This document shows, piece by piece, positions 833-46,321 of a DNA stretch of 64,000 bases. The stretch comes from Escherichia coli. GTDB taxonomy: Bacteria > Pseudomonadota > Gammaproteobacteria > Enterobacterales > Enterobacteriaceae. The DNA lies in the NCBI RefSeq assembly GCF_024700885.2, contig NZ_CP117016.1; one strand, 5' to 3'. Within the stretch, counting starts at the first letter, position 1. Every line of letters starts with the position of its first letter. Below the pieces are notes generated by a model, which was given only the letters and a program-made list of their open reading frames with translations, made no database searches and had not been told where the DNA came from. The position numbers and the translations under genes were made by a program.

Positions 833-1825
833 ATGAAAATAAAGAACATTCTACTCACCCTTTGCACCTCACTTCTGCTTACCAACGTTGCGGCACACGC
901 CAAAGAAGTCAAAATAGGTATGGCGATTGATGATCTCCGTCTTGAACGCTGGCAAAAAGATCGAGATATCTTTGTGAAAAAGGCAGAATCTCTCGGCGCG
1001 AAAGTATTTGTACAGTCTGCAAATGGCAATGAAGAAACACAAATGTCGCAGATTGAAAACATGATTAACCGGGGTGTCGATGTTCTTGTCATTATTCCGT
1101 ATAACGGTCAGGTATTAAGTAACGTTGTAAAAGAAGCCAAACAAGAAGGTATTAAAGTATTAGCTTACGACCGTATGATTAACGATGCGGATATCGATTT
1201 TTATATTTCTTTCGATAACGAAAAAGTCGGTGAATTGCAGGCAAAAGCCCTGGTCGATATTGTTCCGCAAGGTAATTACTTCCTGATGGGCGGCTCGCCG
1301 GTAGATAACAACGCCAAGCTGTTCCGCGCCGGGCAAATGAAAGTGTTAAAACCTTACGTTGATTCCGGAAAAATTAAAGTCGTTGGTGACCAATGGGTTG
1401 ATGGCTGGTTACCGGAAAACGCATTAAAAATTATGGAAAACGCGCTAACCGCCAATAACAACAAAATTGATGCTGTAGTTGCCTCAAACGATGCCACCGC
1501 AGGTGGGGCAATTCAGGCATTAAGTGCGCAAGGTTTATCAGGGAAAGTAGCAATTTCCGGCCAGGATGCGGATCTCGCAGGTATTAAACGTATTGCTGCC
1601 GGTACGCAAACTATGACGGTGTATAAACCTATTACATTGTTGGCAAATACTGCCGCAGAAATTGCCGTTGAGTTGGGCAATGGTCAGGAACCAAAAGCAG
1701 ATACCACACTGAATAATGGTCTGAAAGATGTTCCCTCCCGCCTGCTGACACCGATCGATGTGAATAAAAACAACATCAAAGATACGGTAGTTAAAGACGG
1801 ATTCCACAAAGAGAGCGAGCTGTAA
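833..1825 (+). CDS. xylF: D-xylose ABC transporter periplasmic binding protein
   Basis: ORF-track protein from internal Met 27 (MKIKNILLTLCTSLLLTNVAAHA..., signal peptide); 330 aa. Track start at 755 rejected as an upstream extension. Confidence 0.93.
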   Translation: MKIKNILLTLCTSLLLTNVAAHAKEVKIGMAIDDLRLERWQKDRDIFVKKAESLGAKVFVQSANGNEETQMSQIENMINRGVDVLVIIPYNGQVLSNVVKEAKQEGIKVLAYDRMINDADIDFYISFDNEKVGELQAKALVDIVPQGNYFLMGGSPVDNNAKLFRAGQMKVLKPYVDSGKIKVVGDQWVDGWLPENALKIMENALTANNNKIDAVVASNDATAGGAIQALSAQGLSGKVAISGQDADLAGIKRIAAGTQTMTVYKPITLLANTAAEIAVELGNGQEPKADTTLNNGLKDVPSRLLTPIDVNKNNIKDTVVKDGFHKESEL

Positions 1826-1830
1826 GCGTT

Positions 1831-1855
1831 ACGCCCCGGCGCAGAGCGGGGGCGT
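1831..1855 (+). terminator. GC-rich hairpin between xylF and xylG (possible partial terminator or attenuator)
   Basis: acgccccggcgcagagcgggggcgt forms an 8-9 bp GC stem directly after the xylF stop. Weak T tract. Confidence 0.35.
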
Positions 1856-1902
1856 GATTTCTCTCCATGCCGCGTGAATGAATTGGCTTAGGTGGAGTCG
1901 TT

Positions 1903-3444
1903 ATGCCTTATCTACTTGAAATGAAGAACATTACCAAAACCTTCGGCAGTGTGAAGGCGATTGATAACGTCAGCTTGCGGTTGAATGCTGGCGAAATCGT
2001 CTCACTCTGTGGGGAAAATGGGTCTGGTAAATCAACGCTGATGAAAGTGCTGTGTGGTATTTATCCCCATGGCTCCTACGAAGGCGAAATTATTTTTGCG
2101 GGAGAAGAGATTCAGGCGAGTCACATCCGCGATACCGAACGCAAAGGTATCGCCATCATTCACCAGGAATTGGCCCTGGTGAAAGAATTGACCGTGCTGG
2201 AAAATATCTTCCTGGGTAACGAAATAACCCACAATGGCATTATGGATTATGATCTGATGACGCTACGCTGTCAGAAGCTGCTCGCACAGGTCAGTTTATC
2301 CATTTCACCTGATACCCGCGTTGGCGATTTAGGGCTTGGGCAACAACAACTGGTTGAAATTGCCAAGGCACTTAATAAACAGGTGCGCTTGTTAATTCTC
2401 GATGAACCGACAGCCTCATTAACTGAGCAGGAAACGTCGGTTTTACTGGATATTATTCGCGATCTACAACAGCACGGTATCGCCTGTATTTATATTTCGC
2501 ACAAACTCAACGAAGTCAAAGCGATTTCCGATACGATTTGCGTTATTCGCGACGGTCAGCACATTGGTACGCATAATGCTGCCGGAATGAGTGAAGACGA
2601 TATTATCACCATGATGGTCGGACGAGAGTTAACCGCGCTTTACCCTAATGAACCACATACCACCGGAGATGAAATATTACGTATTGAACATCTGACGGCA
2701 TGGCATCCGGTTAATCGTCATATTAAACGAGTTAATGATGTCTCGTTTTCCCTGAAACGTGGCGAAATACTGGGTATTGCCGGACTCGTTGGTGCCGGAC
2801 GTACCGAGACCATTCAGTGCCTGTTTGGCGTGTGGCCCGGACAATGGGAAGGAAAAATTTATATTGATGGCAAACAGGTAGATATTCGTAACTGTCAGCA
2901 AGCCATCGCCCAGGGGATTGCGATGGTACCCGAAGACAGAAAGCGCGACGGCATCGTTCCGGTAATGGCAGTTGGTAAAAATATTACCCTCGCCGCACTC
3001 AATAAATTTACCGGCGGTATTAGCCAGCTTGATGACGCGGCAGAGCAAAAATGTATTCTGGAATCAATCCAGCAACTCAAAGTTAAAACGTCGTCCCCCG
3101 ACCTTGCTATTGGACGTTTGAGCGGCGGCAATCAGCAAAAAGCGATCCTCGCTCGCTGTCTGTTACTTAACCCGCGCATCCTCATTCTTGATGAACCTAC
3201 CAGGGGTATCGATATTGGCGCGAAATACGAGATCTACAAATTAATTAACCAACTCGTCCAGCAGGGTATTGCCGTTATTGTCATCTCTTCCGAATTACCT
3301 GAAGTGCTCGGCCTTAGCGATCGTGTACTGGTGATGCATGAAGGGAAACTAAAAGCCAACCTGATAAATCATAACCTGACTCAGGAGCAGGTGATGGAAG
3401 CCGCATTGAGGAGCGAACATCATGTCGAAAAGCAATCCGTCTGA
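1903..3444 (+). CDS. xylG: D-xylose ABC transporter ATP-binding protein
   Basis: 513 aa with two ABC cassettes (Walker [10 protein letters not shown] and a second GLVGAGRTE); position after xylF. Confidence 0.93.
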
Positions 3445-4603
3445 AGTGAAATTGGCCGTACCGACATCCGGTGGCTTTTCCGGGCTGAAGTCACTGAATT
3501 TGCAGGTCTTCGTGATGATTGCAGCTATCATCGCAATCATGCTGTTCTTTACCTGGACCACCGATGGTGCCTACTTAAGCGCTCGTAACGTCTCCAACCT
3601 GTTACGCCAGACCGCGATTACCGGCATCCTCGCGGTAGGAATGGTGTTCGTCATAATTTCTGCTGAAATTGACCTTTCCGTCGGCTCAATGATGGGGCTG
3701 TTAGGTGGCGTCGCGGCGATTTGTGACGTCTGGCTAGGCTGGCCTTTGCCACTTACCATCATTGTGACTTTGGTTCTGGGACTGCTTCTCGGTGCCTGGA
3801 ACGGATGGTGGGTCGCGTACCGTAAAGTCCCTTCATTTATTGTCACCCTCGCGGGCATGTTGGCATTTCGCGGCATACTCATTGGCATCACCAACGGCAC
3901 GACTGTATCCCCCACCAGCGCCGCGATGTCACAAATTGGGCAAAGCTATCTACCTGCCAGCACCGGCTTCATCATTGGCGCGCTTGGCTTAATGGCTTTT
4001 GTTGGCTGGCAATGGCGCGGAAGAATGCGCCGTCAGGCTTTGGGTTTGCAGTCTCCGGCCTCTACCGCAGTTGTCGGTCGCCAGTCATTAACGGCGATTA
4101 TCGTCTTAGGCGCAATCTGGCTGTTGAACGATTACCGTGGCGTTCCCACTCCTGTTCTGCTGCTGACGTTGCTGTTACTCGGCGGAATGTTTATGGCAAC
4201 GCGGACGGCATTTGGACGACGCATTTATGCCATCGGCGGCAATCTGGAAGCAGCACGGCTCTCCGGGATTAACGTTGAACGCACCAAACTTGCCGTGTTC
4301 GCAATTAACGGATTAATGGTAGCCATCGCCGGATTAATCCTCAGTTCTCGACTTGGCGCTGGTTCACCTTCTGCGGGGAATATCGCCGAGCTGGACGCAA
4401 TTGCAGCATGCGTGATTGGCGGCACCAGTCTGGCTGGCGGTGTCGGGAGCGTGGCTGGAGCGGTAATGGGGGCATTCATCATGGCTTCACTGGATAACGG
4501 CATGAGTATGATGGATGTACCGACCTTCTGGCAGTATATCGTTAAAGGTGCGATTCTGTTGCTGGCAGTATGGATGGACTCCGCAACCAAACGCCGTTCT
4601 TGA
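3422..4603 (+). CDS. xylH: D-xylose ABC transporter permease
   Basis: 393-aa hydrophobic polytopic protein; overlaps the xylG stop; operon position. Confidence 0.93.
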
Positions 4604-4680
4604 TTTTGATAAAAATTTTCTCAAAGCCGGTAATGTATTACCGGTTTTGAGTTTTTGCATGATTCAGCAGGAAAAGAACC

Positions 4681-5859
4681 ATGTTTACTAAACGTCACCG
4701 CATCACATTACTGTTCAATGCCAATAAAGCCTATGACCGGCAGGTAGTAGAAGGCGTAGGGGAATATTTACAGGCGTCACAATCGGAATGGGATATTTTC
4801 ATTGAAGAAGATTTCCGCGCCCGCATTGATAAAATCAAGGACTGGTTAGGAGATGGCGTCATTGCCGACTTCGACGACAAACAAATCGAGCAAGCGCTAG
4901 CTGATGTCGACGTCCCCATTGTTGGGGTTGGTGGCTCGTATCACCTTGCCGAAAGTTACCCACCCGTTCATTACATTGCCACCGATAACTATGCGCTGGT
5001 TGAAAGCGCATTTTTGCATTTAAAAGAGAAAGGCGTTAACCGCTTTGCTTTTTATGGTCTTCCGGAATCAAGCGGTAAACGTTGGGCCACTGAACGCGAA
5101 TATACATTTCGTCAGCTTGTCGCCGAAGAAAAGTATCGCGGAGTGGTTTATCAGGGGTTAGAAACCGCGCCAGAGAACTGGCAACACGCGCAAAATCGGC
5201 TGGCAGACTGGCTACAAACGCTGCCACCGCAAACCGGGATTATTGCCGTTACTGACGCCCGGGCGCGGCATATTCTGCAAGTATGTGAACATCTACACAT
5301 TCCCGTACCGGAAAAATTATGCGTGATTGGCATCGATAACGAAGAACTGACCCGCTATCTGTCGCGTGTCGCCCTTTCTTCGGTCGCTCAGGGCGCGCGG
5401 CAAATGGGCTATCAGGCGGCAAAACTGTTGCATCGATTATTAGATAAAGAAGAAATGCCGCTACAGCGGATTTTGGTCCCTCCAGTTCGCGTCATTGAAC
5501 GGCGCTCAACAGATTACCGCTCGCTGACCGATCCCGCCGTTATTCAGGCCATGCATTACATTCGTAATCACGCCTGTAAAGGGATTAAAGTGGATCAGGT
5601 ACTCGATGCGGTCGGGATCTCGCGCTCCAATCTTGAGAAGCGTTTTAAAGAAGAAGTGGGCGAAACCATCCATGCCATGATTCATGCCGAGAAGTTGGAG
5701 AAAGCGCGAAGTCTGCTGATTTCAACCACCTTGTCGATCAATGAGATATCGCAAATGTGCGGTTATCCATCGCTGCAATATTTCTACTCTGTTTTTAAAA
5801 AAGCATATGACACGACGCCAAAAGAGTATCGCGATGTAAATAGCGAGGTCATGTTGTAG
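4681..5859 (+). CDS. xylR: Xylose operon transcriptional activator (AraC family, periplasmic-binding-like N-domain)
   Basis: 392 aa; C-terminal AraC-type helix-turn-helix (…ISQMCGYPSLQYFYSVFKKAYDTTPKEYR); synteny. Confidence 0.93.
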   Translation: MFTKRHRITLLFNANKAYDRQVVEGVGEYLQASQSEWDIFIEEDFRARIDKIKDWLGDGVIADFDDKQIEQALADVDVPIVGVGGSYHLAESYPPVHYIATDNYALVESAFLHLKEKGVNRFAFYGLPESSGKRWATEREYTFRQLVAEEKYRGVVYQGLETAPENWQHAQNRLADWLQTLPPQTGIIAVTDARARHILQVCEHLHIPVPEKLCVIGIDNEELTRYLSRVALSSVAQGARQMGYQAAKLLHRLLDKEEMPLQRILVPPVRVIERRSTDYRSLTDPAVIQAMHYIRNHACKGIKVDQVLDAVGISRSNLEKRFKEEVGETIHAMIHAEKLEKARSLLISTTLSINEISQMCGYPSLQYFYSVFKKAYDTTPKEYRDVNSEVML

Positions 5860-5875
5860 CGATGATGAGAATTGT

Positions 5876-5955
5876 CGGCGTCGCATCAGGTAACTCAGCA
5901 CAACCACCTGATGCGAGCAAAAGCCTTATCCGACTGACAAGTCGGATAAGGCTCG
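5876..5955. repeat. REP-type palindromic units between convergent xylR and bax
   Basis: Two imperfect palindromes (gcatcagg…cctgatgc and agccttatccgac…gtcggataaggct) typical of enterobacterial REP elements. Confidence 0.55.
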
Positions 5956-5966
5956 AGGAAATGCAA

Positions 5967-6791
5967 TTACATATGCGCCGCGATTAACCGTTGGTTATCC
6001 TGGTACATTGCGAACAGGTAGTTGTTATAACTCTTCCCTTTGGTCGAGTAGCCCTTCAGCTTGTGAATCATCGCTGTGGCAGTCACTTCCTGATCCGCTT
6101 TACGCAGCTGTGCACGCGATTTACGGAACGAAGAGTAAGCCGGGTGCGTATTCAGGTTAGTGACATAGGCGCTCACCGATTCTTTGACAGAACTAAACTG
6201 TGAGTACCCTTTCACTTTACCCGGCGCATTGGTACAACGTCCTTTCATGCATTTCATGCCGAACAGATTGTTGTTGTTGCGCGCCAGCTTTGACGTTCCC
6301 CAACCGCTTTCTGCTGCAGCCATCGTCGCCACCATACTGGTAGGGATAATGTCTACGCGTTCAAGCAAGGTATTCCACGGGATTTTTCGCGTATTACCAG
6401 ACCACTTCACCTTGTAGCGTTTGGCGATGTCTTTCAGACGCGCACGCTCAGCAGGTGACCATTGGCCCTGATACTGTTTTGAAATCAGCCAGTTACGTTC
6501 CGCAGTAATGGCCGCATTTTGGCTGGTAATGTAAGGCATTACAGTCCGGAGAAACGCCTTTTTCCTTGGTGTTCCGGAAGGGTATTTTCGCAAATCAGGA
6601 AGTGAACTACTCTTTGCACTATTGCGAGAATACTCTTGTTTACTGCTTACCTGTTTATTACTAGCTTTAGTTAAGTGGGACTTTTGACTCGCTGTTGTTG
6701 TGTGCGTCTTCGCTAACACCTCACTCGAAAACACCAGAGTGAGTAACATAAGAATCATCGCCCCATATCGTCGTATGGGAGTCAAAATCAT
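5967..6791 (-). CDS. bax: Bax protein (putative glucosaminidase-like, signal peptide)
   Basis: 274-aa ORF on the minus strand with an N-terminal hydrophobic leader; position between xylR and malS. Confidence 0.8.
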   Translation of the reverse strand: MILTPIRRYGAMILMLLTLVFSSEVLAKTHTTTASQKSHLTKASNKQVSSKQEYSRNSAKSSSLPDLRKYPSGTPRKKAFLRTVMPYITSQNAAITAERNWLISKQYQGQWSPAERARLKDIAKRYKVKWSGNTRKIPWNTLLERVDIIPTSMVATMAAAESGWGTSKLARNNNNLFGMKCMKGRCTNAPGKVKGYSQFSSVKESVSAYVTNLNTHPAYSSFRKSRAQLRKADQEVTATAMIHKLKGYSTKGKSYNNYLFAMYQDNQRLIAAHM

Positions 6792-34367: not shown

Positions 34368-37300
34368 ATGAGCGGAAAACCGGCGGCGCGTCAGGGCGAC
34401 ATGACGCAGTATGGCGGTAGCATTGTTCAGGGTTCAGCCGGGGTACGTATTGGTGCCCCCACCGGCGTGGCCTGTTCGGTGTGCCCCGGCGGGGTGACGT
34501 CCGGCCATCCGGTCAATCCGCTGCTCGGTGCGAAGGTCCTTCCCGGCGAAACCGACCTTGCCCTGCCCGGCCCGCTGCCGTTCATCCTCTCCCGCACCTA
34601 CAGCAGTTACCGGACAAAAACGCCCGCGCCGGTGGGGAGCCTCGGCCCCGGCTGGAAAATGCCCGCGGATATCCGCTTACAGCTGCGCGATAACACACTG
34701 ATACTCAGTGATAACGGCGGCAGGAGCCTGTATTTTGAGCACCTGTTTCCCGGTGAGGACGGTTACAGCCGCAGCGAGTCACTCTGGCTGGTGCGCGGCG
34801 GCGTGGCGAAACTGGATGAAGGTCACCGGCTGGCCGCACTCTGGCAGGCACTGCCGGAAGAGCTTCGCCTGAGTCCGCATCGTTATCTGGCGACGAACAG
34901 TCCGCAGGGGCCGTGGTGGGTACTCGGCTGGTGTGAGCAGGTGCCGGAGGCGGATGAGGTGCTGCCCGCGCCGCTGCCGCCGTACCGGGTACTGACCGGG
35001 CTGGTGGACCGCTTCGGGCGCACACAGACGTTTCACCGTGAGGCTGGCGGCGAAATCACCGGCGTGACGGATGGCGCAGGCCGTCACTTCCGGCTGGTAC
35101 TGACCACGCAGGCGCAGCGGGCAGAAGAAGCCCGGCAGCAGGCCATTTCCGGCGGGACGGAACCGTCCGCTTTTCCTGATACCCTGCCGGGTTACACCGA
35201 ATATGGCCGGGACAACGGCATCCGTCTGTCTGCCGTGTGGCTGACACACGACCCGGAATATCCGGACAACCTGCCAGCCGCGCCGCTGGTACGCTATGGC
35301 TGGACGCCGCGTGGCGAACTGGCGGCGGTGTATGACCGCAGCAATACACAGGTGCGCAGCTTTACTTACGATGATAAATACCGGGGCCGGATGGTGGCGC
35401 ACCGTCACACGGGCCGACCGGAAATCCGTTACCGTTACGACAGTGACGGGCGGGTGACAGAACAGCTAAACCCGGCGGGCTTAAGCTACACGTATCAGTA
35501 TGAGAAAGACCGCATCACCATCACCGACAGCCTGGACCGCCGTGAAGTCCTGCACACGCAGGGCGAAGGCGGGCTGAAGCGGGTGGTGAAAAAGGAACAC
35601 GCGGACGGCAGCGTCATGCAGAGTCAGTTTGACGCGGTGGGCAGGCTTAAGGCACAGACGGATGCCGCAGGCCGGACGACTGAGTACAGCCCGGATGTGG
35701 TGACGGGACTCATCACGCGCATCACCACACCGGATGGCAGGGCATCGGCATTTTACTATAACCACCACAACCAGTTAACGTCAGCCACCGGGACTGACGG
35801 GCTGGAGTTGCGCCGGGAATATGATGAATCCGGCCGTCTGATTCAGGAAACCGCACACAACGGCGATATCACCCGCTACCGTTATGATAATCCACACAGT
35901 GACTTACCCTGCGCAACGGAAGATGCCACCGGCAGCCGGAAAACCATGACATGGAGCCGTTACGGTCAGTTGCTGACCGTCACTGACTGTTCCGGTTATG
36001 TAACCCGTTATGACCATGACCGTTTTGGTCAGGTGACGGCGGTGCACCGCGAGGAAGGGCTGAGTCAGTACCGCGCATACGACAGCCGTGGACAGTTAAT
36101 TGCGGTGAAAGACACGCAGGGCCATGAAACGCGGTATGAATACAACGCCGCCGGTGACCTGACCGCCGTCATTGCCCCGGACGGCAGCAGAAACGGGACA
36201 CAGTACGATGCGTGGGGAAAGGCCATCCGTACCACGCAGGGCGGTCTGACGCGCAGTATGGAATACGATGCTGCCGGACGGGTCATCCGCCTGACCAGTG
36301 AAAACGGCAGCCACACCACCTTCCGTTACGATGTACTTGACCGGCTGATACAGGAAACCGGCTTTGACGGCCGCACACAGCGTTATCACCACGACCTGAC
36401 CGGCAAACTTATCCGCAGCGAGGATGAGGGGCTGGTCACCCACTGGCACTATGACGAAGCAGACCGCATCACGCACCGCACCGTGAAGGGTGAACCGGCA
36501 GAGCAGTGGCAGTATGATGAACGCGGCTGGCTGACACAAATCAGCCATCTCAGCGAAGGCCACCGGGTGACGGTGCATTACGGGTATGATGAGAAAGGCC
36601 GCCTGACCGGTGAGCGCCAGACGGTGCATCACCCGCAGACGGAAGCACTGCTCTGGCAGCATGAAACCAGACACGCTTACAACGCGCAGGGACTGGCGAA
36701 CCGCTGTATACCGGACAGCCTGCCCGCCGTGGAATGGCTGACTTACGGCAGCGGCTGGCTGGCAGGCATGAAACTCGGCGACACACCGCTGGTGGAGTAT
36801 ACCCGCGACCGCCTGCACCGGGAAACGCTGCGCAGCTTCGGCCGTTATGAACTCACCACCGCTTATACCTCTGCCGGGCAGTTACAGAGCCAGCACCTGA
36901 ACAGCCTGCAGTATGACCGCGATTACACCTGGAACGACAACGGCGAACTCATCCGCATCAGCAGCCCGCGACAGACCCGGAGTTACAGCTACAGCGACTC
37001 CGGCAGGCTGACCGGCGTCCACACCACCACCTCAAATCTGGATATCCGCATCCCGTATGCCACGGACCCGGCAGGCAACCGCCTGCCCGACCCGGAGCTG
37101 CACCCGGACATCACCCTCAGCATGTGGCCGGATAACCGTATCGCCCGTGACGCGCACTATCTTTACCGGTATGACCGTCACGGCAGACTGACGGAGAAAA
37201 CCGACCTCATCCCGGAAGGGGTTATCCGCACGGACGATGAGCGGACTCACCAGTACCATTACGACAGTCAGCACCGGCTGGTGCACTACACGCGGACACA

Positions 37301-38555
37301 ATATGCAGAGCCGCTGGTCGAAAGTCGCTATCTTTACGACCCGCTGGGCCGCAGGGTGGCAAAACGGGTATGGCGGCGTGAACGGGACCTGACGGGCTGG
37401 ATGTCGCTGTCACGGAAACCGGAAGTGACCTGGTACGGCTGGGACGGCGACCGGCTGACCACGATACAGAACGACAGAACCCGCATCCAGACGGTTTATC
37501 AGCCGGGGAGCTTCACGCCACTCATCAGAGTTGAAACCGCCACCGGTGAGCTGGCGAAAACGCAGCGCCGCAGCCTGGCGGATGCGCTTCAGCAGTCCGG
37601 CGGCGAAGACGGTGGCAGTGTGGTGTTCCCGCCGGTGCTGGTGCAGATGCTCGACCGGCTGGAAAGTGAAATCCTGGCTGACCGGGTGAGTGAGGAAAGC
37701 CGCCGCTGGCTGGCATCGTGCGGCCTGACGGTGGAGCAGATACAAAACCAGATGGACCCGGTGTACACGCCGGCGCGAAAAATCCACCTGTACCACTGCG
37801 ACCATCGCGGCCTGCCGCTGGCGCTTGTCAGCACGGAAGGGGCAACAGAATGGTGCGCAGAATACGATGAATGGGGCAACCTGCTGAATGAAGAGAACCC
37901 GCACCAGCTGCAGCAGCTCATCCGCCTGCCGGGTCAGCAGTATGATGAGGAGTCAGGCCTGTATTACAACCGCCACCGCTATTATGACCCGCTGCAGGGG
38001 CGGTATATCACTCAGGATCCGATTGGGCTGAAGGGGGGATGGAATTTTTATCAGTATCCGTTAAATCCGGTTCAGTATATAGATTCAATGGGACTGGCAT
38101 CTAAATATGGACACTTAAATAATGGCGGATATGGAGCGAGACCCAACAAACCGCCTACGCCCGATCCAAGTAAGTTGCCAGACATAGCGAAACAATTAAG
38201 ACTGCCATATCCTATTGACCAGGCCAGTAGTGCGCCTAATGTTTTCAAAACATTCTTCAGAGCATTAAGTCCTTACGATTACACACTGTATTGCAGGAAG
38301 TGGGTAAAACCCAATCTGACTTGTACGCCGCAGGATGATCCCCAGTATCCAGGGATGGAGACAAAGACAGCAAGTGATTACCTGCCACAGACAACTTGGC
38401 CAACAACTCAATTACCACCAGGATATACTTGTGCAGAACCCTATTTATTCCCAGACATTAATAAACCCGATGGGCCAGCAACAGCAGGGATAGATGATTT
38501 GGGTGAAATTTTAGCTAAAATGAAACAGAGAACATCGAGAGGAATAAGAAAATGA
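34368..38555 (+). CDS. rhsA: Rhs-family polymorphic toxin (RhsA locus) with a divergent C-terminal toxin domain
   Basis: 1395 aa; N-terminal PAAR-like region, long YD-repeat core (…YRYD…, …YDxxGR…), the core-end motif …[31 protein letters not shown]…, then an AT-rich, compositionally distinct C-terminal tip of about 155 aa. Confidence 0.9.
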
Positions 38556-39121
38556 AAAGAGCTTTGTTCTTTTTGCTGATGATATTCGTTAGTTTTGGTG
38601 TTATAGCTAATTGCGAAACACAAGCTAAAGATCAAGATTGCTTTACCATTTTCACTAAGGGTACTATTTTTTCCGCGTTTCCTGTCTTAAATAATAAAAC
38701 CATGTGGAGATGGTATCAGAATGAGGACATAGGTGAGTATTATTGGCAAACAGAGCTTGGTATATGTAAAAATAACAAATTCACACCAAGCGGGGCGAGA
38801 CTCTTAATTCTCGTCGGATCACTACGCCTTAATGAAAATCATGCAACCAAAGGAACGTTGCAGGAGTTGCTAAATACAGCAGAAAAAACGGCGTTTCTCG
38901 GCGATCGGTTTAGAAGTTATATAAGAGCGGGTATCTATCAAAAAAAGAGCAGTGATCCAGCTCAGTTGTTGGCAGTCCTTGATAATTCAATCATGGTTAA
39001 ATATTTTAAAGATGAGAAGCCAACTTATGCTCGAATGACAGCACATCTCCCGAACAAAGATGAGTCTTACGAATGTTTAACAAAAGTACAGCATGAACTG
39101 CTTCGTAGTGAAGAAAAATAA
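38552..39121 (+). CDS. Putative cognate immunity protein of the rhsA C-terminal toxin
   Basis: 189 aa; start overlaps the rhsA stop (ATGA); AT-rich; N-terminal hydrophobic leader ([19 protein letters not shown]) suggests export. Role inferred from position only. Confidence 0.5.
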
Positions 39122-39289
39122 AATCTCTTCCTGAGAAAATAAATTAACTATTCGAAAAAATATGTTCTTAATGGGTATCCAGGAACACCAGAAGGTCGAT
39201 TTGGAAAAATGGATTCCGATGGTAAGAATATCATATATTCTGAATGTAATGTTTTACCCACAACTTTTGAGATTCGATAGGTGTAGAGC

Positions 39290-39637
39290 ATGAGAAACTC
39301 ACTAATATTACTTATTATGATATTGTTTACAATATCACACTCAGTATTTGGAAAAGAAAATTCAGCGGAAATTTTAGTAAATAGTCGTGAAATGGCTTTG
39401 GAATTATCATATGTTTATATTAAATATATATACGGGAAAGAAAAAGCAGAATTTCAGAAACCATATAGTATTACAGATGACAATAATTGTTGGAAAATCG
39501 AGGGAAAACAACCGAAGACGTTAGGAGGAAATTTTACAATACTAATAGCGAAAAAAGATGGGCAAGCGTTGGATGTAATACACAAAATAATCCACTGTTC
39601 AGACGATTCAAATATTTTACCAAGGTGTGTTTCGTAA
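39290..39637 (+). CDS. Small secreted immunity-like protein
   Basis: 115 aa; signal-peptide-like N-terminus; paralogous to the frameshifted ORF at 41240-41507. Confidence 0.45.
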   Translation: MRNSLILLIMILFTISHSVFGKENSAEILVNSREMALELSYVYIKYIYGKEKAEFQKPYSITDDNNCWKIEGKQPKTLGGNFTILIAKKDGQALDVIHKIIHCSDDSNILPRCVS

Positions 39638-39799
39638 CTATTTTGTGTACAATATGACTCTACATATCGACGAAAAAACCACTTGATTTGACAGGAACAC
39701 ATTCAAAAAAATTTCTTTTTCATTTCAGGAGCGATTTTCATCTGTTACTTGAAGTATCTGTGAGATTAAGTGACTCCCCCTAACGTCGTACTAAATAGT

Positions 39800-40100
39800 A
39801 ATTACTGGCCATACCGGGAGCAGTATTCGGCGCTTCCCACATGCAGCAGAATAACCGCATCAGCGAAGATGTATTGTATTTTTACTATCACAATGTGTAC
39901 GGACGGTTTATGGAAAAGAATGAACATTAGATACGCGATGCGGCGGCAGGTTACACGGTTATCACTACGATAGCCAATACTGGCTGGTGCATTACCGCCG
40001 TGAACAATAGGACGCCGTACTGCTGGAAATTTCTTACCTTTATGACTCCCCGCGCCGCCGTATTGGGAAACGGGAAGCAATCAAGATGAGGCTGATATAA
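39800..40100 (+). pseudogene. Degraded Rhs core remnant 1
   Basis: Translates in pieces to …QNNRISEDVLYFYYHNVYGRFMEKNEH*… and …HYDSQYWLVHYRREQ*…YLYDSPRRRIGKREAIK…, alignable to rhsA residues …[26 protein letters not shown]…[13 protein letters not shown]…[13 protein letters not shown]…; in-frame stops. Confidence 0.55.
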
Positions 40101-40297
40101 TGTGCGGAATGCCTGAGTATTTTTAGAATAGGGGGGTAATATGTTTGATAGAATATATCTTGGTGATCGAGCAATAAAAAATTGAATTTGATTTATGGAG
40201 TAAACAAATTAGAATTCAGGTTAATTTAATCTCAAGGATAGCCTATGGTACAACAGAATGGAATTTTTATGATAATGAAGACTTAGAAGATGGTTAT

Positions 40298-40540
40298 TTG
40301 GTATTTTCAGATGTTAGTTTCTTCAATATAACTCCTAATGGCTCTATTCCAGATGATTATATAATTTCAATAATTACAGATAATGTCAATGTTGAATATT
40401 TTGAATCAACTATAGTTGCTGTTGGTCAAATTCGAAACACAAATGTTGGTGACATTGATAATATTGGTGAATGTCAAATTTTCATCAGGTATAAAGACAG
40501 CTGGATTGAGAATAAACTCAAAGAAAAAATAATTGAATAA
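40298..40540 (+). CDS. Hypothetical small protein (TTG start in track)
   Basis: 80-aa ORF in the AT-rich spacer after Rhs remnant 1; no recognisable motif. Confidence 0.25.
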   Translation: MVFSDVSFFNITPNGSIPDDYIISIITDNVNVEYFESTIVAVGQIRNTNVGDIDNIGECQIFIRYKDSWIENKLKEKIIE

Positions 40541-40639
40541 CCATGTTATGTATAGACATTTTAGATGGAACGAACCAGAGGAAGGCATGCCTCCGACTTG
40601 GGTTATATGGGCACGGAGTTTTAGTGTAGTGAACTCAAC

Positions 40640-40710
40640 GACGCAAACCGAATAACCTGCCGCTGGCGCTTATCAGCACGTAAGGGACAACAGCGTAGTA
40701 CGTAGAATAA
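40640..40710 (+). pseudogene. Degraded Rhs core remnant 2
   Basis: cctgccgctggcgcttatcagcacgtaagggacaacag… matches the rhsA core segment cctgccgctggcgcttgtcagcacggaaggggcaacag… at about 37810. Confidence 0.45.
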
Positions 40711-40792
40711 TCCTACCCACGTAGTATGGACACAGGCCTAAGCGAGGTTCTGGTTTTCAAATTTTTCGGGAGTTAGATGATTGGAGGAACAG

Positions 40793-41158
40793 ATGATAAG
40801 AATCGCATTTTTAATAACCAATAAATTTCTTGAGATAGATAGTACCACTCTTGCTGGATATGATTTTAGCGGGATGAATCTACATCGTGCCACCCTCAAT
40901 GGTTATTGTCTTGATGGGGCGAAATTTGAAAAAACTCATTTAAGAAATGTAATGATTCAACATACATCAACTAGAAATGCTGTCTTTCGCAATGCGGCTC
41001 TGATGAATGCTATTCTGAATAACTCAGATTTCACTGGAAGTGATTGTAGTAATTCAAGGTCAATAGGTGAAAATTTTAAAGCAATAGATAATCATGGGAA
41101 AGATATAATAAATGGAAAAGGATTGCCTAATGTTTGCAAAATACATGACAACGTATAA
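40793..41158 (+). CDS. Pentapeptide-repeat protein
   Basis: About 121 aa from MIRIAF (ggagga RBS); tandem pentapeptide-like repeats (…ATLNGYCLDGAKFEKTHLRNVMIQHTSTRNAVFRNAALMNAILNNSDFTGSDCSNS…). Confidence 0.5.
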   Translation: MIRIAFLITNKFLEIDSTTLAGYDFSGMNLHRATLNGYCLDGAKFEKTHLRNVMIQHTSTRNAVFRNAALMNAILNNSDFTGSDCSNSRSIGENFKAIDNHGKDIINGKGLPNVCKIHDNV

Positions 41159-41239
41159 GAAAATATTATTCAGAACCTATGTGATTGTATCTTTATTTTT
41201 ACATACAACACATGGGCGCAGTGTAATAATATTATTATA

Positions 41240-41507
41240 ATGCGCAAGTATGAAAGTGAGGGGAAATACACCGTTAGAAATTTGGTCAAAAATAAAGCTA
41301 TAGCATTGGAATTAGCTGAGATGTATGTTAAAAATCGTTATGGACATGATGCCGAAGAAGAAAAAAAAACCATACAAAATCATGGAATTACCAACAAGTT
41401 GGATTGTTGAAGGCACCATTGAATCAGACCAAATTGCTGGTAGGGTTTTTATTATAGAAATAGGCAAAAATGACGGGAGAATTCTAAATTTTGGCCACGG
41501 AAAATAA
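41240..41507 (+). pseudogene. Frameshifted paralog of the 39290-39637 immunity-like gene
   Basis: Frame 1 from ATG 41240 reads MRKYESEGKYTVRNLVKNKAIALELAEMYVKNRYGHDAEEEKK, then an A9 homopolymer (41361-41369) shifts the frame into the track ORF 41325-41507 (…PYKIMELPTSWIVEGT…GKNDGRILNFGHGK). Removing one A restores an intact reading frame of about 88 codons. Confidence 0.5.
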
Positions 41508-41611
41508 GTATGTAAGGATAAACAAACATCGTGTGTGCTGATGGCAGAGTAGGTGGAGGACTCCAGACAGTCAAACGATAGAAAAAGATAGTCTTTATGG
41601 AGGTTCCTGCA

Positions 41612-42454
41612 ATGTCGAATACATACCAGAAAAGAAAGGCAAGTAAAGAGTATGGTTTATACAATCAATGTAAGAAACTAAATGATGATGAATTATTTCG
41701 CTTACTTGATAATCGCAATTCATTGAAAAGGATTTCATCTGCCAGAGTATTGCAGCTAAGAGGTGGGCAAGACGCTGTTAGATTGGCAATTGAATTCTGC
41801 GCTGACAAAAATTATATCCGTAGAGATATAGGAGCATTTATACTCGGGCAAATAAAAGTTTGCAAAAAATGCGAAGATAGCGTTTTTAATATTTTAAAAA
41901 AGATGGCACTGAATGATAAAAGTGCTTGCGTTCGAGCTACAGCAATCGAGTCAACTGCTCAGCGATGCAAGAAAAACCCAATTTATTCACCTAAAATAGT
42001 AGAACAATCTCAAATTACTGCTTTTGATAAATCGGCTAATGTCAGACGTGCTACGGCATTTGCTATTTCTGTTATCAATGATAAAGAAACAATTCCACTA
42101 TTGATTAATCTGTTAAAAGATCCAAATGGAGATGTCAGAAACTGGGCCGCATTTGCAATAAATATCAATAAATATGATAATAGTGATATTAGGGATTATT
42201 TTGTGGAGATGCTTCAGGATAAAAATGAGGAAGTCCGTATTGAAGCAATAATCGGACTTTCCTACAGAAAAGATAAAAGGGTTTTATCTGTTTTATGCGA
42301 TGAGTTAAAAAAAAATACTGTTTATGATGATATCATTGAAGCTGCGGGTGAATTAGGTGATAAAACGCTACTTCCTGTTTTAGATACTATGTTGTACAAG
42401 TTTGATGACAATGAAATTATAACTTCCGTTATTGATAAGCTGAAGCGTTCATAG
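41612..42454 (+). CDS. yibA: HEAT-repeat protein YibA
   Basis: 280 aa from MSNTYQKRKASKEYGLYNQ…; recognised as the K-12 rhsA-adjacent YibA. Track start is 5 codons upstream. Confidence 0.85.
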   Translation: MSNTYQKRKASKEYGLYNQCKKLNDDELFRLLDNRNSLKRISSARVLQLRGGQDAVRLAIEFCADKNYIRRDIGAFILGQIKVCKKCEDSVFNILKKMALNDKSACVRATAIESTAQRCKKNPIYSPKIVEQSQITAFDKSANVRRATAFAISVINDKETIPLLINLLKDPNGDVRNWAAFAININKYDNSDIRDYFVEMLQDKNEEVRIEAIIGLSYRKDKRVLSVLCDELKKNTVYDDIIEAAGELGDKTLLPVLDTMLYKFDDNEIITSVIDKLKRS

Positions 42455-42495
42455 CGTGAGTTGCCTATGCACAGTGAGGTATTCCCGCCGGCACG

Positions 42496-43305
42496 GTGCA
42501 GATGCTCGACCGGCTGGAAAGTGAAATCCTGGCTGACCGGGTGAGTGAGGAAAGCCGACGCTGGCTGGCATCGTGCGGCCTGACGGTGGCGCAGATGCAA
42601 AACCAGATGGACCCGGTGTACACGCCGGCGCGAAAAATCCACCTGTACCACTGCGACCATCGCGGCCTGCCGCTGGTGCTTATCAGCACGGAAGGGGCAA
42701 CAGAATGGTGCGCAGAATACGATGAGTGGGGCAACCTGCTGAATGAAGAGAACCCGCACCAGCTGCAGGGGCGGTATATCACTCAGGATCCGATTGGACT
42801 GAAGGGGGGATGGAATTTTTATCAGTATCCGTTGAATCCGATAACTGATATTGACCCGTTGGGATTAGCGACCTGTTTATACAGCATAACTTTAGGTATG
42901 CTTTCATGCGTTTCAGATACGCCAAGTGATGATAATTCTTATGGTGTGCTTACTATTTCAGTCGCCTCTGGTAATAATGGTAATAATATGCAATGTAAAA
43001 ATAATCCTGGTTGTACACACTTACAAAATAGAGGCCCAATACCTCCAGGGGTATGGAGCTGGAATGTTAATGGTCCTGGAGCAACTAATAGAAAACCTAA
43101 TGGTATACGTTTAGTACCGTCAGCAAATACAGAAACGTATAATCGTGATGGATTTTTAACACATAGTTGTTTAAACGCTTTTGGTCCATCTTTAGGACCT
43201 CGATTCTGTTCCGAGGGTTGTATAACTGGTTCATCTAATGACATGCAAAAATTAAATGAGCTAATATTTTCAGAGCCAGATAGCACATTAACAGTGACGG
43301 ACTAG
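42496..43305 (+). CDS. yibJ: Orphan Rhs C-terminal fragment with Cys/Gly-rich toxin-like tip
   Basis: 269-aa ORF; its first about 100 aa match the end of the rhsA core (…[16 protein letters not shown]…[18 protein letters not shown]), with a 28-codon deletion spanning [12 protein letters not shown]. Symbol from position. Confidence 0.65.
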
Positions 43306-43309
43306 AAAT

Positions 43310-43705
43310 ATGGCAAGGTTATTAACAATTGTGCTTTTTTTCTCTATTTCTGCGAATGCAGTTACTGTAAACCAATTTCAGAGAGAGTTGGATTTGGCAG
43401 ACAAGGCAATATTATGGGCACTAATATCAGCCAGTACCCAAGAGGGACGAAAAGCGTGTTCACTTAGCTATTTTTCATGTAAAGCCGCAGAGGCTGAACT
43501 CGGACTGGCATATATGGCTGCTAATGATAACAAGGCATTTCTCACATCCTTATCTAGAATAATGATGTACAAAATAGATGCTGGACTTTCCGAATCCTAT
43601 ACATGCTATTTATTAAGCAAGGGAAAGATCATAAGACCATATCTGAAGAATCTAAATCCACACCAACTTGTCGCTGATTGCATTGAAACTGTAAATAAAA
43701 GATAA
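43310..43705 (+). CDS. yibG: Small secreted protein, putative immunity partner of the yibJ fragment
   Basis: 131 aa; signal-peptide-like N-terminus (MARLLTIVLFFSISANA); 4 bp after yibJ. Symbol assigned by position only. Confidence 0.4.
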   Translation: MARLLTIVLFFSISANAVTVNQFQRELDLADKAILWALISASTQEGRKACSLSYFSCKAAEAELGLAYMAANDNKAFLTSLSRIMMYKIDAGLSESYTCYLLSKGKIIRPYLKNLNPHQLVADCIETVNKR

Positions 43706-44283
43706 AAATAAAAAAATCATTGATATAGATTCAGTTAATATTTGCAATGATAATAAAAATATAAATTGGAGAGTTAATAGTACTATTGTAGCCATTGATG
43801 ATTCTATAAAATGCATCGATGAATAATAACTTAATTATATTTAAAAATATATTAATGACTCACTCTCCAGGAGTTTTTTAACTTAGTGTTATAATGAATA
43901 CGATAATTAAAAGTGAAGAGAAAAATAGTTGTATACATATATTACATGAACCTACATTGTGATCTATAAATTAAATATTTTTAAATGTGACTGTCATCCT
44001 TCAGATAATAAAGCCATCATCGCAATAGATGGAAAAGCACTCCTGCTCTTTTTTGATTAGAGCCGTGGCAGAGGAACAACTCATATCATCATTGCGATCT
44101 CGACAATGTATGGTCTGATCCTTCGGCAGATCAAGACGGATAAAAAATCCAATGAGTTCACACTCATCCCGAACTTCTTAACATAATGGATATTAACGAA
44201 AAATCATCGCAGCCAATGAAGTAATATGCAAAAATAATTAGTCCTTACAGGGAGCAAAGTTCCATAATCTCCCCCTTCCCTAC

Positions 44284-45420
44284 TCAATGATCCAAATAAA
44301 GATAATGCATCCAACTGGTCATTCTCAGCAGCACCTTCCGCATCACCGAAACATGGCTGAAATGGTCGGAGTAAACTGCCACCTGGGCGTAGATGCCGTC
44401 GGGTAAGGCATCGATATCAGCGTTAGGGTCCAGTTCAATGGTTCCCAGCACACCGTCCGTGCCGGGCACGACCGTTAATGATTGCAATACCCCCTGCGCC
44501 TGATAAGAACCGCCTGGCACGACAGGTAAAATACTGGTCAGTTTGCCGTGGAACACCTGCCCAGGTAGCGCGTTAAACACCACTTCCGCATCATCGCCGG
44601 GTTTCAGACGTAACAGCGAGTTTTGCCGAAATTGGGCGACAATTTGCCGTTTTTGCTCGGGGATGAAAACCATCACCGGACGCAACGGCAAGGCAGCTGC
44701 GTATGTACCTGGGCGGATCAGTACCTGAGTAACGTAGCCATTGCTCGGCGCGCGAATGACAGTCTGCTCAAGGTTATATTTTGCTTCAGTAAGTTGCGCT
44801 CTTAAGCTCACAATCTGCGATTGCTCGCCGTTAACCATACTATCGAGCTGGCTCTGGATCTGCGCCTGCTCCGCCACCGAGCCTTTCACCAGCGCATCCT
44901 GCGCGAGGAAATTTTGCCGCGCATCGTCGATGTCACGTTCCGAGAACGGATTCACCGCCGCCTGGCTGCCTTTCAGATAACGTTGATAATTATTAAACAG
45001 ACGGTCGCGCTCCGCTGAAACCTGGGTGGTGTTGGCCTGCGCTTCAGTGAGCTGCGCGCGCAGCGTCTTTATATTATGCGTCGCCGTCATCAGGTCAGCC
45101 TGAAGTCTGTCAACTCGCGCCTGGTAACGAACCGGGTCGAGCTTAAAAAGCACCTCGCCCTTTTGAATAAGCTGATTATTCTTGTCAGTGACTTCAGTAA
45201 CAATTCCCGTCACCTGTGGCGTGATGGGGATCGCAATCACTGCCTTTTGCGCGGTAAAAGTGTAAGGGTGGTTGTAGTTCATCAACAAAATCAAACCACT
45301 CACCAGAAACACGCCTCCCAGCGCCGCCGTCGCCAGCGTCCACTGATTTACCGGAATGCGGAAGATTTTAAAGACCGCCCACGCCAGCGCCACGTAAGTT
45401 AAAACAATCAATAGATCCAT
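44284..45420 (-). CDS. yibH: HlyD-family membrane fusion protein
   Basis: 378 aa; N-terminal TM segment, coiled-coil region, biotinyl/lipoyl-like hairpin. Confidence 0.88.
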
Positions 45421-45422
45421 AT

Positions 45423-45785
45423 TTAGATCTCCGGGAACGTGGAATAGTCAGTCTTTTTCTCGGCGGCGAGTTGATGCTCCAGCCGGGAAATTCGGTCAGA
45501 AAGTGCGGCGATTTCCGGGTCAGCCGCTTTCTCCTGCGACGCAACATGTGACTGCATACCCCAGCCACGCTCCGGTTGATAGAGCGTCGCCCAGATCCAC
45601 AGAAACGGCCAGATAACATGCAGAGTAAACAGGCTCACCCAGCCCGCCGTATGAATAGCGTCGGCATGGGGATGGTTGCGCTTTTTGGCAATCAGATAAG
45701 GGATGTCATGTATCGCGATGATTCCATAAAAAATCACCAGAAAGACGAAGATCAGCACTCCCAACGCGAAATAGTTTAGAAACAT
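45423..45785 (-). CDS. yibI: DUF3302-type small inner membrane protein
   Basis: 120 aa; two hydrophobic segments; immediately upstream of yibH on the minus strand. Confidence 0.82.
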
Positions 45786-46321
45786 ATCTGCCTCGGATTC
45801 ACGTTTATCGGTGTTGTTTTTTGGCTGGCAGCCAGAAGGGAGTCAGGCTGATATTTTGACAATAATTCGGGTTCGCGATTCTCGCCATAACACCAAAGAA
45901 TAATTTTTAGAGGTGATGAGTTGCTTAGTTACATAACGATTTTATGACGAAGGCATAACATGCTGCAGATCACATCAGGTGAACGCCGTAAGAAAATATC
46001 TTGTGATTCAGATCACAAAGATTCAACAAACTAACAAAACAAAAATGTGACATTACTCACATTTAAATGCCATTTTTAGCGAAAATCGCCGCCTTGTTGC
46101 TTTTTTACACAGTCGTTTTGTGATGAGCATCACGTCAATTACCTCTCTACCCCCTATATTTATGTGACTGATATCACACAAAAGGCCGTCGACTGGACAG
46201 TTAACCGATTCAGTGCCAGATTTCGCAGTATCTACAAGGTCCGGCTACCTCTGCCGCCACATTAACAAAAAACCTCGGGCTTCCAGCCTGCGCGACAGCA
46301 AACATAAGAAGGGGTGTTTTT
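45786..46321. promoter_or_regulatory. mtlA upstream regulatory region
   Basis: 536-bp non-coding region before mtlA. The mtl operon promoter is known to be CRP- and MtlR-regulated; sites not mapped here. Confidence 0.45.

Follow-up and report, generated by a model that had tools for sequence, protein, structure and literature searches.

Two degraded stretches of Rhs core sequence lie behind the full-length rhs gene in a 64,000-nt stretch of Escherichia coli DNA (the window), and both are very probably non-functional relics of repeated tip replacement, followed by deletions and the insertion of an IS element. The first (remnant 1; 39810..40073, + strand) is a decayed internal piece, 264 nt long, of a Salmonella/Citrobacter-type Rhs core, and the second (remnant 2; 40656..40709, + strand) is the 54-nt beginning of an orphan core fragment of E. 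coli type (LPLALIST...). Both show homology to the conserved shell region of the Rhs/YD-repeat core (PF05593, PF03527, PF25023). An initial annotation had proposed two such stretches, interrupted by stops and frame breaks. Both exist and give extended alignments to intact Rhs sequences rather than short chance matches, although the first starts at 39810, not 39800, and the second is limited to 54 nt that end at an IS3 scar. The accompanying view of them as fossils of displaced cassettes holds in that degraded cores sit in an array of orphans; the toxin and immunity pairing that it assigned in detail does not.

The order selB-selA-yibF, rhs, cassette array and yibH-yibI-mtlA identifies the E. 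coli rhsA locus. In the list of open reading frames, the resident rhs gene (34368..38555, +) encodes 1395 aa, with the core reaching to about 38092 and the tip occupying 38093-38555. Up to 38092 it is 96% identical to K-12 rhsA; its tip is of the type borne by the orphan ybfO in K-12 and BL21, and the block 37050-40709 shares 96.9% identity with the rhsC-locus orphan and ybfC of BL21. The next gene encodes a YbfC-like protein of 189 aa (38552..39121, +) that found no match in a Pfam scan and, from its position alone, is presumed to be the cognate immunity protein of the attached resident tip. It is followed by an orphan immunity gene of the Imm-NTF2-2 type that lacks an upstream toxin (39290..39637, +; PF15631, E 7e-18), which occurs in the same context in 847 genomes. 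Depending on the strain, the same array is found at the rhsA, rhsB or rhsC position.

Remnant 1 corresponds to aa 51-137 of the Salmonella houtenae protein P0084 and to approximately aa 905-1000 of the resident core, and has to be read in three frame segments (two frameshifts) with stops at 39927-39929 and 40011-40013. In tblastn searches against 39650-41250, aa 919-946 of the resident protein matched 39841-39924 (39% identity) and aa 959-1000 matched 39948-40073 (57%, with an in-frame stop), giving a sum E-value of 6.7e-11 for the segments; a further tblastn comparison gave an E-value of 2.7e-20. The peptide YLYDSPRRRIGKR, encoded at 40036-40074, stands opposite a 13-residue stretch of the core. 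At the nucleotide level, 39810-40074 aligns over 267 nt with an rhs gene of Salmonella houtenae at 76.4% identity (E 3.5e-55), compared with about 57-65% to the resident core, with which the longest exact shared run is 11 nt. The nearest relative thus stands 23.6% away and only approximates the likely donor lineage. Searched exhaustively with phmmer, 1.8 billion proteins yielded 51 non-self matches at E<=1e-3; PF03527 (RHS) was present in seven of the eight that were scanned, and the eighth carried only PF05954 (Phage_GPD). A word-indexed protein search with the stitched peptide retrieved only ORF calls from the same spot.

Remnant 1 has decayed strongly from GC towards AT. Its GC content is 49%, against 30-38% in the flanks, and both remnants form local GC peaks within an AT-rich tract. 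Among 60 mismatches, 44 are changes from G/C to A/T on the remnant side, as are 24 of the 30 changes assignable to the remnant lineage, which amount to a lineage-specific change of at least 11.6% (30/259 sites). The shortness of remnant 2 and the 39-57% protein identity of remnant 1 to the resident core might point to a chance or compositional match in ordinary intergenic sequence. The E-values for both remnants, the 51 phmmer matches with their RHS domains, the GC peaks and the colinear continuation of remnant 2 into a full orphan in other strains argue so strongly against this that its probability is practically negligible.

No ORF continuous with the remaining core contains remnant 1, which ends at core aa ~1000; the hyperconserved core end PxxxxDPxGL, located near aa 1235 in the resident protein, is absent. 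Remnant 1 is present at >=95% identity in 845 of 5,426 complete E. coli genomes, and none of the 5,426 contains a more intact version in the range of about 65% to 95% identity. BL21 and O157:H7 are among the carriers, and in no carrier is the remnant annotated. The rhsC and rhsA loci of K-12 lack both remnants.

Directly at the end of remnant 1 lies an Rhs toxin gene, represented by its last 58 nt (19 codons and the stop; 40069..40126, +), which are covered by a 96.6% alignment to positions 5528-6169 of the ETEC4070 locus (L003), where the intact toxin CDS occupies 4683-5585 and its tip about 5050-5585. The two share a 6-nt microhomology, AACGGG, at 40069-40074. Past remnant 1 the toxin is limited to its last 19 codons, with no in-frame CT domain. 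Downstream follows a gene of the DUF6258 family (40141..40540, +; PF19772, delimited by alignment to ETEC4070), frameshifted in the A-run at 40176-40181 (A6, where the intact gene has A8) and running into a premature stop at 40183-40185. Copies next to the toxin have A8; all five toxin-less copies that were read have A7 or A6. The copy in the window scores 47.8 bits against PF19772 (cutoff 25) and covers only profile positions 44-104 of 136, compared with 91.4 bits and positions 9-96 for the 130-aa ETEC4070 protein. PGAP calls the truncated gene as a 100-aa protein with a non-ATG start. The ORF 40298-40540, which the initial annotation had given as a small ORF following a remnant, is the 3′ part of this longer frameshifted gene. 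DUF6258 is a family that the literature does not mention; here it is presumably the immunity partner of the deleted toxin.

The toxin is intact in 58 genomes, upstream of a DUF6258 gene and sometimes on a full-length Rhs protein (for example in OkiPb01700 or FDAARGOS_946), and every intact E. coli copy inspected is carried by an E. coli-type core. Elsewhere its relatives are found on RHS or PT-HINT carriers. The DUF6258 gene belongs to the toxin of the stub, to which remnant 1 was joined by deletion, and not demonstrably to remnant 1. The proposal that each remnant is followed by its own small immunity ORF fails here, as remnant 1 is an internal piece with neither hyperconserved end nor tip.

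It is possible, if somewhat unlikely, that remnant 1 and the deleted toxin come from the same gene, the toxin/DUF6258 cassette having entered E. coli on a Salmonella/Citrobacter-type core fragment and remnant 1 being the donor's own core. One deletion within that gene, reaching from core aa ~1000 to a point 19 codons short of the stop, would then have disarmed the cassette. This reading fits the exact coincidence of the remnant 1 end with the start of the toxin stub at the microhomology, for which one deletion suffices, and the joint occurrence of remnant 1 (about 845 genomes) with the DUF6258 region (843 genomes). However, the intact toxin copies on E. coli-type cores argue against it, as do the unrelated tips borne by the nearest protein relatives of remnant 1 in Salmonella and Citrobacter. 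The tip relatives retrieved from Rahnella, Diaphorobacter and metagenomes are fragments that end before the informative core region and are too short to reveal the core type. Divergence also separates the two parts: the adjoining 40069-40709 is only 3.4% divergent from its intact counterpart in ETEC4070, against a lineage-specific change of at least 11.6% in remnant 1, which suggests that the junction arose after remnant 1 had already aged.

We tentatively suggest, as an unlikely reading, that remnant 1 is the footprint of a cross-genus import, in which a tip cassette on a Salmonella/Citrobacter-type core fragment was joined illegitimately into a clade-I array; the imported core fragment may have been too divergent for homologous exchange.

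A 115-nt spacer (40541..40655, +) separates the DUF6258 gene from remnant 2. It is shared with BL21 and ETEC4070 at 93-96% identity, and in other strains, too, it precedes the second orphan core fragment. Searches by tblastn with several Rhs proteins found nothing in it and it has no recognisable coding similarity. The segment 40541-40760 had been considered as a group II intron or other structured element; it consists of the shared spacer and an IS3 end, and a permissive Rfam scan of 38500-44300 found no RNA family.

Remnant 2 matches nt 3444-3497 of the resident core (aa 1148-1166) with 85% identity over 54 nt (E 9e-13) and a longest exact run of 16 nt, and falls within the PF03527 'RHS protein' motif region. 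It contains three in-frame stops in 54 nt, is truncated at its 3′ end and stops at core aa ~1166, with no hyperconserved end after it. Together with the spacer it runs, at 93-97% identity, into complete orphan rhs fragments of other strains. This orphan exists in three states: intact in porcine ETEC strains (the ETEC4070 state, 19 genomes), cut in BL21 by ISEc1/H-rpt, and cut in the window by IS3. The intact version is accompanied by a tip of 154 aa and a DUF3887-like protein.

The cut is marked by a 62-nt scar of the right end of IS3 with its terminal inverted repeat (40710..40771, - strand), the rest of the element being deleted. Positions 40710-40763 (54 nt) share 98% identity with the right terminus of an IS3 copy that has its transposase on the opposite strand; orfA/orfB and the second terminal repeat are absent from the remaining sequence of about 62 nt.

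Beyond the scar lies a chimeric ORF (40781..41158, +). Its 5′ part encodes pentapeptide repeats (PF00805, E 6.6e-9) with an ATG at 40793 behind GGAGG, and it closes with 28 codons (41072-41158) from the 3′ end of an RhsB-type toxin gene, so that the C-terminus NFKAIDNHGKDIINGKGLPNVCKIHDNV aligns with that of RhsB. The similarity extends over 41072-41958, which is 91% identical to K-12 rhsB-yhhH-yibA'. No intact relative of the pentapeptide part was found in the E. coli genomes at about >=65% nucleotide identity or from a 5.8-billion-protein index, and comparison with plasmids gave just repeat-level matches of 32-33%. This ORF had been proposed as the immunity partner of remnant 2, an assignment we reject: an IS3 end fragment lies between them, the ORF is a chimera ending in toxin codons, and it never adjoins the tip of remnant 2 in intact copies.

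The RhsB-type stub overlaps a YhhH-like Imm-NTF2-2 immunity gene (41130..41509, +; PF15631, E 4e-15). This gene is frameshifted and appears in the ORF list as 41240-41410 and 41325-41507; its PCN033 counterpart is labelled a frameshifted pseudogene by PGAP. The next unit (41560..42454, +; 96% identity to K-12, L008 5286-6494) combines the terminal 32 nt of the K-12-type RhsA tip with yibA, which is intact (41612-42454) and encodes a HEAT-repeat protein according to its Pfam matches and the K-12 annotation. From here on, the window is colinear with K-12 (41560-42768 and 42762-46000). The array holds three units of a toxin 3′ stub with an immunity gene (40069-40540, 41072-41509 and 41560-42454), and in two of the three the immunity gene is frameshifted. 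In all, the record amounts to six or more former cassettes, with a single IS3 scar, one deletion at a microhomology and a frameshift in each of two immunity genes.

The array also contains an undegraded orphan module, RHS-Tlde1/Imm57 (42496..43705, +; PF03527, PF10908, PF15596), in which a 3′ core fragment and the Tlde1 tip form a single 269-aa ORF (42496-43305; core homology over 42472-42868), followed by the Imm57 gene (43310-43705). Its presence further along the same array, and the finding that orphan core fragments act in this way in Salmonella Typhimurium (Koskiniemi et al. 2014, PMC3967940), could suggest that the remnants are silent cassettes too, serving as homology handles for recombination of the main rhs gene with downstream modules. 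However, no toxin domain follows either remnant, any recombinant would inherit their stops and frameshifts, and their short and divergent homology to the resident core falls far below the 522 bp at 95% identity that re-arms the Salmonella gene. We consider such a role very improbable. Neither remnant is translatable into Rhs sequence or useful as a recombination handle, and we infer that no function remains in either.

Both displaced tips and core fragments lacking a tip have been described before. Jackson et al. (2009; PMC2935791) described the displacement model and core fragments without tips downstream of rhs genes, and Poole et al. (2011; PMC3150448) described orphan rhs-CT/rhsI modules. 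Like the relics of Jackson et al., those in the window are partial cores and tips that follow a full-length rhs gene; the fragments form GC peaks in a low-GC tract, and the same tips recur at different rhs loci. Their dissociated fragments were nearly identical to the upstream core; remnant 1, in contrast, resembles a Salmonella/Citrobacter sub-lineage far more than the core it accompanies, and is an internal piece lacking the hyperconserved end. E. coli clade I loci, which in that study were generally without dissociated tips, also contrast with the long array found here.

In position and origin the remnants resemble orphan rhs-CT/rhsI modules, whose textbook intact example in the window is RHS-Tlde1/Imm57, and their intact forms elsewhere in E. 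coli consist of a core fragment, a tip and a small gene. Of the two, remnant 2 has the expected 5′ similarity to the upstream core (85% over 54 nt), while remnant 1 is nearer to a Salmonella-type core (76%, against 57%). Unlike such modules, the remnant region has no toxin domains and one partner gene is frameshifted; the two stretches are the remains of orphan modules, not orphan modules themselves. The K-12 accessory pseudogenes (yibJ, yibS, yibW and yibU at rhsA; ybfO at rhsC) are likewise partial cores and tips at the same loci. The block containing remnants 1 and 2 is nevertheless missing from K-12, where H-rpt comes immediately after ybfC (rhsC locus) and yibA immediately after rhsA (rhsA locus). 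In the orphan immunity arrays that sequential effector displacement left in Vibrio cholerae T6SS clusters (PMC5361080), toxins have similarly been lost and downstream immunity genes kept in a row, although the carriers there are VgrG-linked effectors and not Rhs.

The junctions suggest the following history. The array behind the full-length rhs gene is a stack of old cassettes, in which the sequence of remnant 1 has become richer in A+T and its frame has been disrupted. A deletion at AACGGG would then have fused it to the last 58 nt of the Rhs toxin gene, removing the toxin and leaving its DUF6258 partner, which was presumably broken later by poly-A slippage. IS3 would have inserted into the E. 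coli-type core fragment of the orphan now seen as remnant 2, and a later deletion probably took out the bulk of IS3 together with the remaining orphan sequence and its partner genes. The same deletion would have brought in the unrelated pentapeptide-repeat fragment fused to the RhsB-type toxin stub.

The relic block, kept at >=95% identity in about 845 genomes, could have hitch-hiked with the neighbouring immunity genes, or may be under some constraint; the truncated DUF6258 product or the chimeric pentapeptide ORF may be made and active. On a further, rather unlikely reading, removal of the toxin with retention of its last 30-90 nt and the immunity gene, seen three times, would reflect selection to disarm cassettes, the toxin 3′ end being kept because the translation start of the immunity gene lies inside it. 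Since two of the three retained immunity genes are frameshifted, their retention looks more like slow decay than maintained protection.

As relics of a known kind these remnants are ordinary, and their value lies mainly in annotation and natural history; they do not change the understanding of the Rhs mechanism. RefSeq has no annotation for remnants 1 and 2 in most of their hundreds of carrier genomes, and the RhsB-toxin stub at 41072-41158 is mislabelled there as a 'pentapeptide protein fragment'. The junctions provide an unusually complete layered record of one rhs array. The occurrence of the toxin in 58 genomes and of its partner region in 843 indicates that toxin tips are lost quickly relative to adjoining genes. 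If a cross-genus import did give rise to remnant 1, tip acquisition would not be strictly limited to near-identical cores, contrary to the displacement model.

Two stretches that the initial annotation read as degraded Rhs core fossils, remnant 1 (39810–40073) and remnant 2 (40656–40709), are indeed core remnants: they are matched by tblastn, blastn and phmmer, and the quoted peptides lie where it had placed them. Its pairing of each fossil with a small downstream ORF as a displaced toxin/immunity module proved wrong. Both remnants form GC peaks (47–54%) within a tract of 29–38% GC, a signature used for finding dissociated core fragments (PMC2935791).

The window carries the rhsA locus of E. 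coli, with selB, selA and yibF upstream and yibH, yibI and mtlA downstream. On the plus strand, a 1395-aa ORF with an rhs core and a ybfO-type tip (34368–38555) is followed by a YbfC-like protein (38552–39121), an orphan Imm-NTF2-2 gene (39290–39637), remnant 1, a toxin stub with a broken DUF6258 gene (40069–40540), a spacer with remnant 2 (40541–40709), an inverted IS3 right end (40710–40771), a pentapeptide/RhsB-stub chimera with a broken YhhH-like gene (40781–41509), a K-12-type RhsA stub with an intact yibA (41560–42454), and an apparently intact orphan (42496–43705). Compared with K-12 rhsA, core identity is 96% as far as 38092; the K-12 tip is replaced by a 3.5-kb block (38093–41559) containing both remnants, and colinearity returns just 5′ of yibA, 32 nt ahead of the rhsA stop. 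The stretch 39650–41250 shows 100% identity with at least 25 complete E. coli chromosomes among those listed, including PCN033.

Several further features of the locus were observed. In the window the main rhs ORF reads without interruption, and its PCN033 counterpart (1719–5906 of that locus) is a RefSeq pseudogene with an internal stop; the two sequences also differ by 2 nt in length somewhere within 41250–41612, so that the window cannot be PCN033. The Imm-NTF2-2 gene is intact and has the same context in all 847 genomes carrying it, with neither a toxin gene nor a recognisable toxin stub in the upstream 39122–39289. In the last orphan, a 269-aa ORF joins the end of an RHS core to a Tlde1 domain and precedes an Imm57 gene; the module corresponds to the K-12 pseudogenes yibS, yibW, yibV and yibU. 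The K-12 yibJ-tip/yibG module is absent from the window, with the junction near 42762–42768. Upstream of yibH, 225 nt (43987–44211) with ~77% identity to ISAs1/H-rpt elements of other rhs loci are probably another IS relic.

Comparison of the window's own Rhs protein by tblastn placed residues 919–946 at 39841–39924 (39% identity) and residues 959–1000 at 39948–40073 (57% identity); the frame differs between the two, and there is an in-frame stop (sum E-value 6.7e-11). Searched exhaustively with phmmer against 1.8 billion representative proteins, the stitched remnant 1 peptide gave 51 non-self matches at E ≤ 1e-3; an RHS domain was found in seven of the eight scanned, the eighth matching Phage_GPD only. 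Where a protein has both, the remnant 1 match precedes the PF03527 motif by ~135–140 residues, which is also the spacing in the resident protein.

The closest proteins to remnant 1 are Rhs fragments of Salmonella enterica, S. bongori and Citrobacter amalonaticus. Against S. houtenae P0084, three frame segments (39815–39850, 39841–39948 and 39942–40073) align at 67%, 56% and 66% identity (sum E 2.7e-20). The S. houtenae lineage and remnant 1 have in common a short linker (ERQIRDGGG vs. EH*IRDAAA); the E. coli core carries 12 inserted residues at this site. That remnant 1 decayed from a copy of the resident core, the core of the window's 1395-aa protein, was considered and rejected: nucleotide identity is 57% to that core vs. 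76.4% to the S. houtenae rhs gene (39810–40074, over 267 nt), and the short linker is shared with the latter; between the two intact cores, identity is 65%. Clade I includes some rhs genes of Salmonella, S. bongori and Citrobacter that lie outside the E. coli cluster (PMC2935791), and remnant 1 may belong to that group. At 44 of 60 mismatches the Salmonella gene has G/C and remnant 1 A/T, 24 of the 30 remnant-branch changes polarised by the E. coli core are G/C to A/T, and GC content has gone from ~62% to 49%. These changes look like long neutral decay under AT-biased mutation. Remnant 1 is present at ≥95% identity in 845 of 5,426 complete E. coli genomes, annotated in none, and a more intact copy could not be detected among the 5,426.

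The DNA following remnant 1 has a counterpart in ETEC4070, whose rhsC locus harbours an intact orphan built from a core fragment of the E. coli type with a ~175-aa tip (4683–5585 of that locus), followed by a 130-aa DUF6258 protein. From 40069 onward the window is 96.6% identical to ETEC4070; the match begins 58 nt before the toxin stop codon (40124–40126), takes in DUF6258 and the spacer and extends into remnant 2, and 5′ of 40069 the two are unrelated. The transition is abrupt, with ...GGGAAACGGG/TG in the Salmonella-type core, ...GTCAACGGG/AAGC in the toxin and ...GGGAAACGGGAAGC in the window, and 6 nt (AACGGG, 40069–40074) are shared at the join. We infer that a microhomology-mediated deletion joined remnant 1 to the toxin stub.

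Among E. coli genomes, 58 have the toxin tip; several of them carry it at the end of a full-length "RHS element core protein" with DUF6258 directly next. In other bacteria, relatives (55–69%) are attached to RHS or PT-HINT carriers. The tip paired with DUF6258 is a genuine polymorphic-toxin domain, and from the position of DUF6258 we infer that it is the immunity gene. No mention of this family was found in the literature searched. The DUF6258 region is present in 843 genomes vs. 58 for the toxin; therefore, the toxin is missing from most carriers of its partner gene. The full-length DUF6258 gene begins at 40141; ORF 40298–40540, initially annotated as a small ORF in its own right, is its frameshifted 3′ part (80 codons), and the Pfam match in the window covers only profile positions 44–104. 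The A-run at 40176–40181 has 6 A in the window, leading to a stop at 40183–40185, vs. 8 A in the intact, toxin-accompanied ETEC4070 copy; BL21, 190693, O157:H7 SS52 and ST2747 have 7 A, also out of frame. Every toxin-less copy read is frameshifted, with A-run length differing between strains.

Remnant 2 matches core nt 3444–3497 at 85% identity (blastn, E 9e-13) and translates to LPLALIST*GTTA*YVE*. In ETEC4070, the sequence of 40541–40709 runs on through ...DPIGL into a 154-aa tip and then a DUF3887-like protein; this orphan is complete in just 19 genomes, for the most part porcine ETEC. In BL21 an ISEc1/H-rpt element cuts the core fragment slightly downstream of the cut in the window, which falls after ...GAATA (40708–40710). 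In the window, the following 54 nt have 98% identity to the inverted IS3 right terminus, extended by megablast to 40771 (a 62-nt scar). This IS3 end abuts the truncated fragment, and the remainder of the element is missing. IS3 would therefore have inserted into the core fragment of the orphan; most of the element, and all DNA as far as 40772, would have gone in a later deletion. The junction is found in ~272 genomes. The last 32 nt of remnant 2 (40678–40709), beside this junction, differ from the ETEC4070 copy at 7 positions (~78% identity), mostly by G-to-A or C-to-T changes, vs. ~97% identity over the preceding ~600 nt.

The pentapeptide ORF beyond the scar (40781–41158; PF00805, E 6.6e-9), with an ATG at 40793 after GGAGG, had been taken as remnant 2's partner. 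Its N-terminal ~97 aa are repeats, and its last 28 residues (NFKAIDNHGKDIINGKGLPNVCKIHDNV; 41072–41158) are the C-terminus of an RhsB-type toxin. Because of this C-terminus and the 91% identity from 41072 to K-12 rhsB-3′/yhhH/partial yibA, the ORF is a fusion made by deletion, and a role as immunity gene of remnant 2's orphan was rejected. The RefSeq label of 41072–41158 as a pentapeptide fragment is an artefact of this fusion. In the searches made, the pentapeptide part had no intact relative, and the YhhH-like immunity gene 3′ of the fusion is frameshifted.

We conclude that the remnants have no function, because neither is followed by a toxin, both are closed by stops, and exact matches to the resident core reach no more than 11 nt for remnant 1 and 16 nt for remnant 2. 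RecA-dependent recombination requires roughly 20–40 bp of exact homology, which is also in line with an absence of function. Re-arming of a Salmonella orphan used 522 bp at 95% identity (PMC3967940). Remnant 1 is conserved at ≥95% among carriers; since this equals the conservation of neighbouring unconstrained DNA (94.7–100% for the DUF6258 region), it would need no special explanation.

At the rhsB position of strain 190693, next to yhhJ/rbbA, the same array is present at 97.4% identity (window 34553–42768), and BL21 and O157:H7 have its first part at their rhsC position; alignment of 37050–40709 identifies the array start as the ybfO/ybfC orphan block of BL21. The ybfO-type tip is an orphan in K-12 and BL21 and attached to a full-length rhs in the window. 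Because a near-identical array lies at rhsB and its first part at rhsC, arrays move between rhs loci, in line with earlier description. Three units of this one array have lost the toxin and kept its last 58 (40069–40126), 87 (41072–41158) or 32 nt (41560–41591) and the next gene, which suggests that toxin-removing deletions tend to spare the region with that gene's start signals.

The pattern of tip displacement, dissociated tips and tipless core fragments is that described by Jackson et al. 2009 (PMC2935791), and it matches the orphan rhs-CT/rhsI modules of Poole et al. 2011 (PMC3150448). The origin of remnant 1 in a non-E. coli core sub-lineage is mildly unusual, as is the long array at this clade-I locus, since clade I loci of E. 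coli generally have no dissociated tips (PMC2935791). Neither point alters the mechanism, and decayed Rhs core relics are a kind of feature already known.
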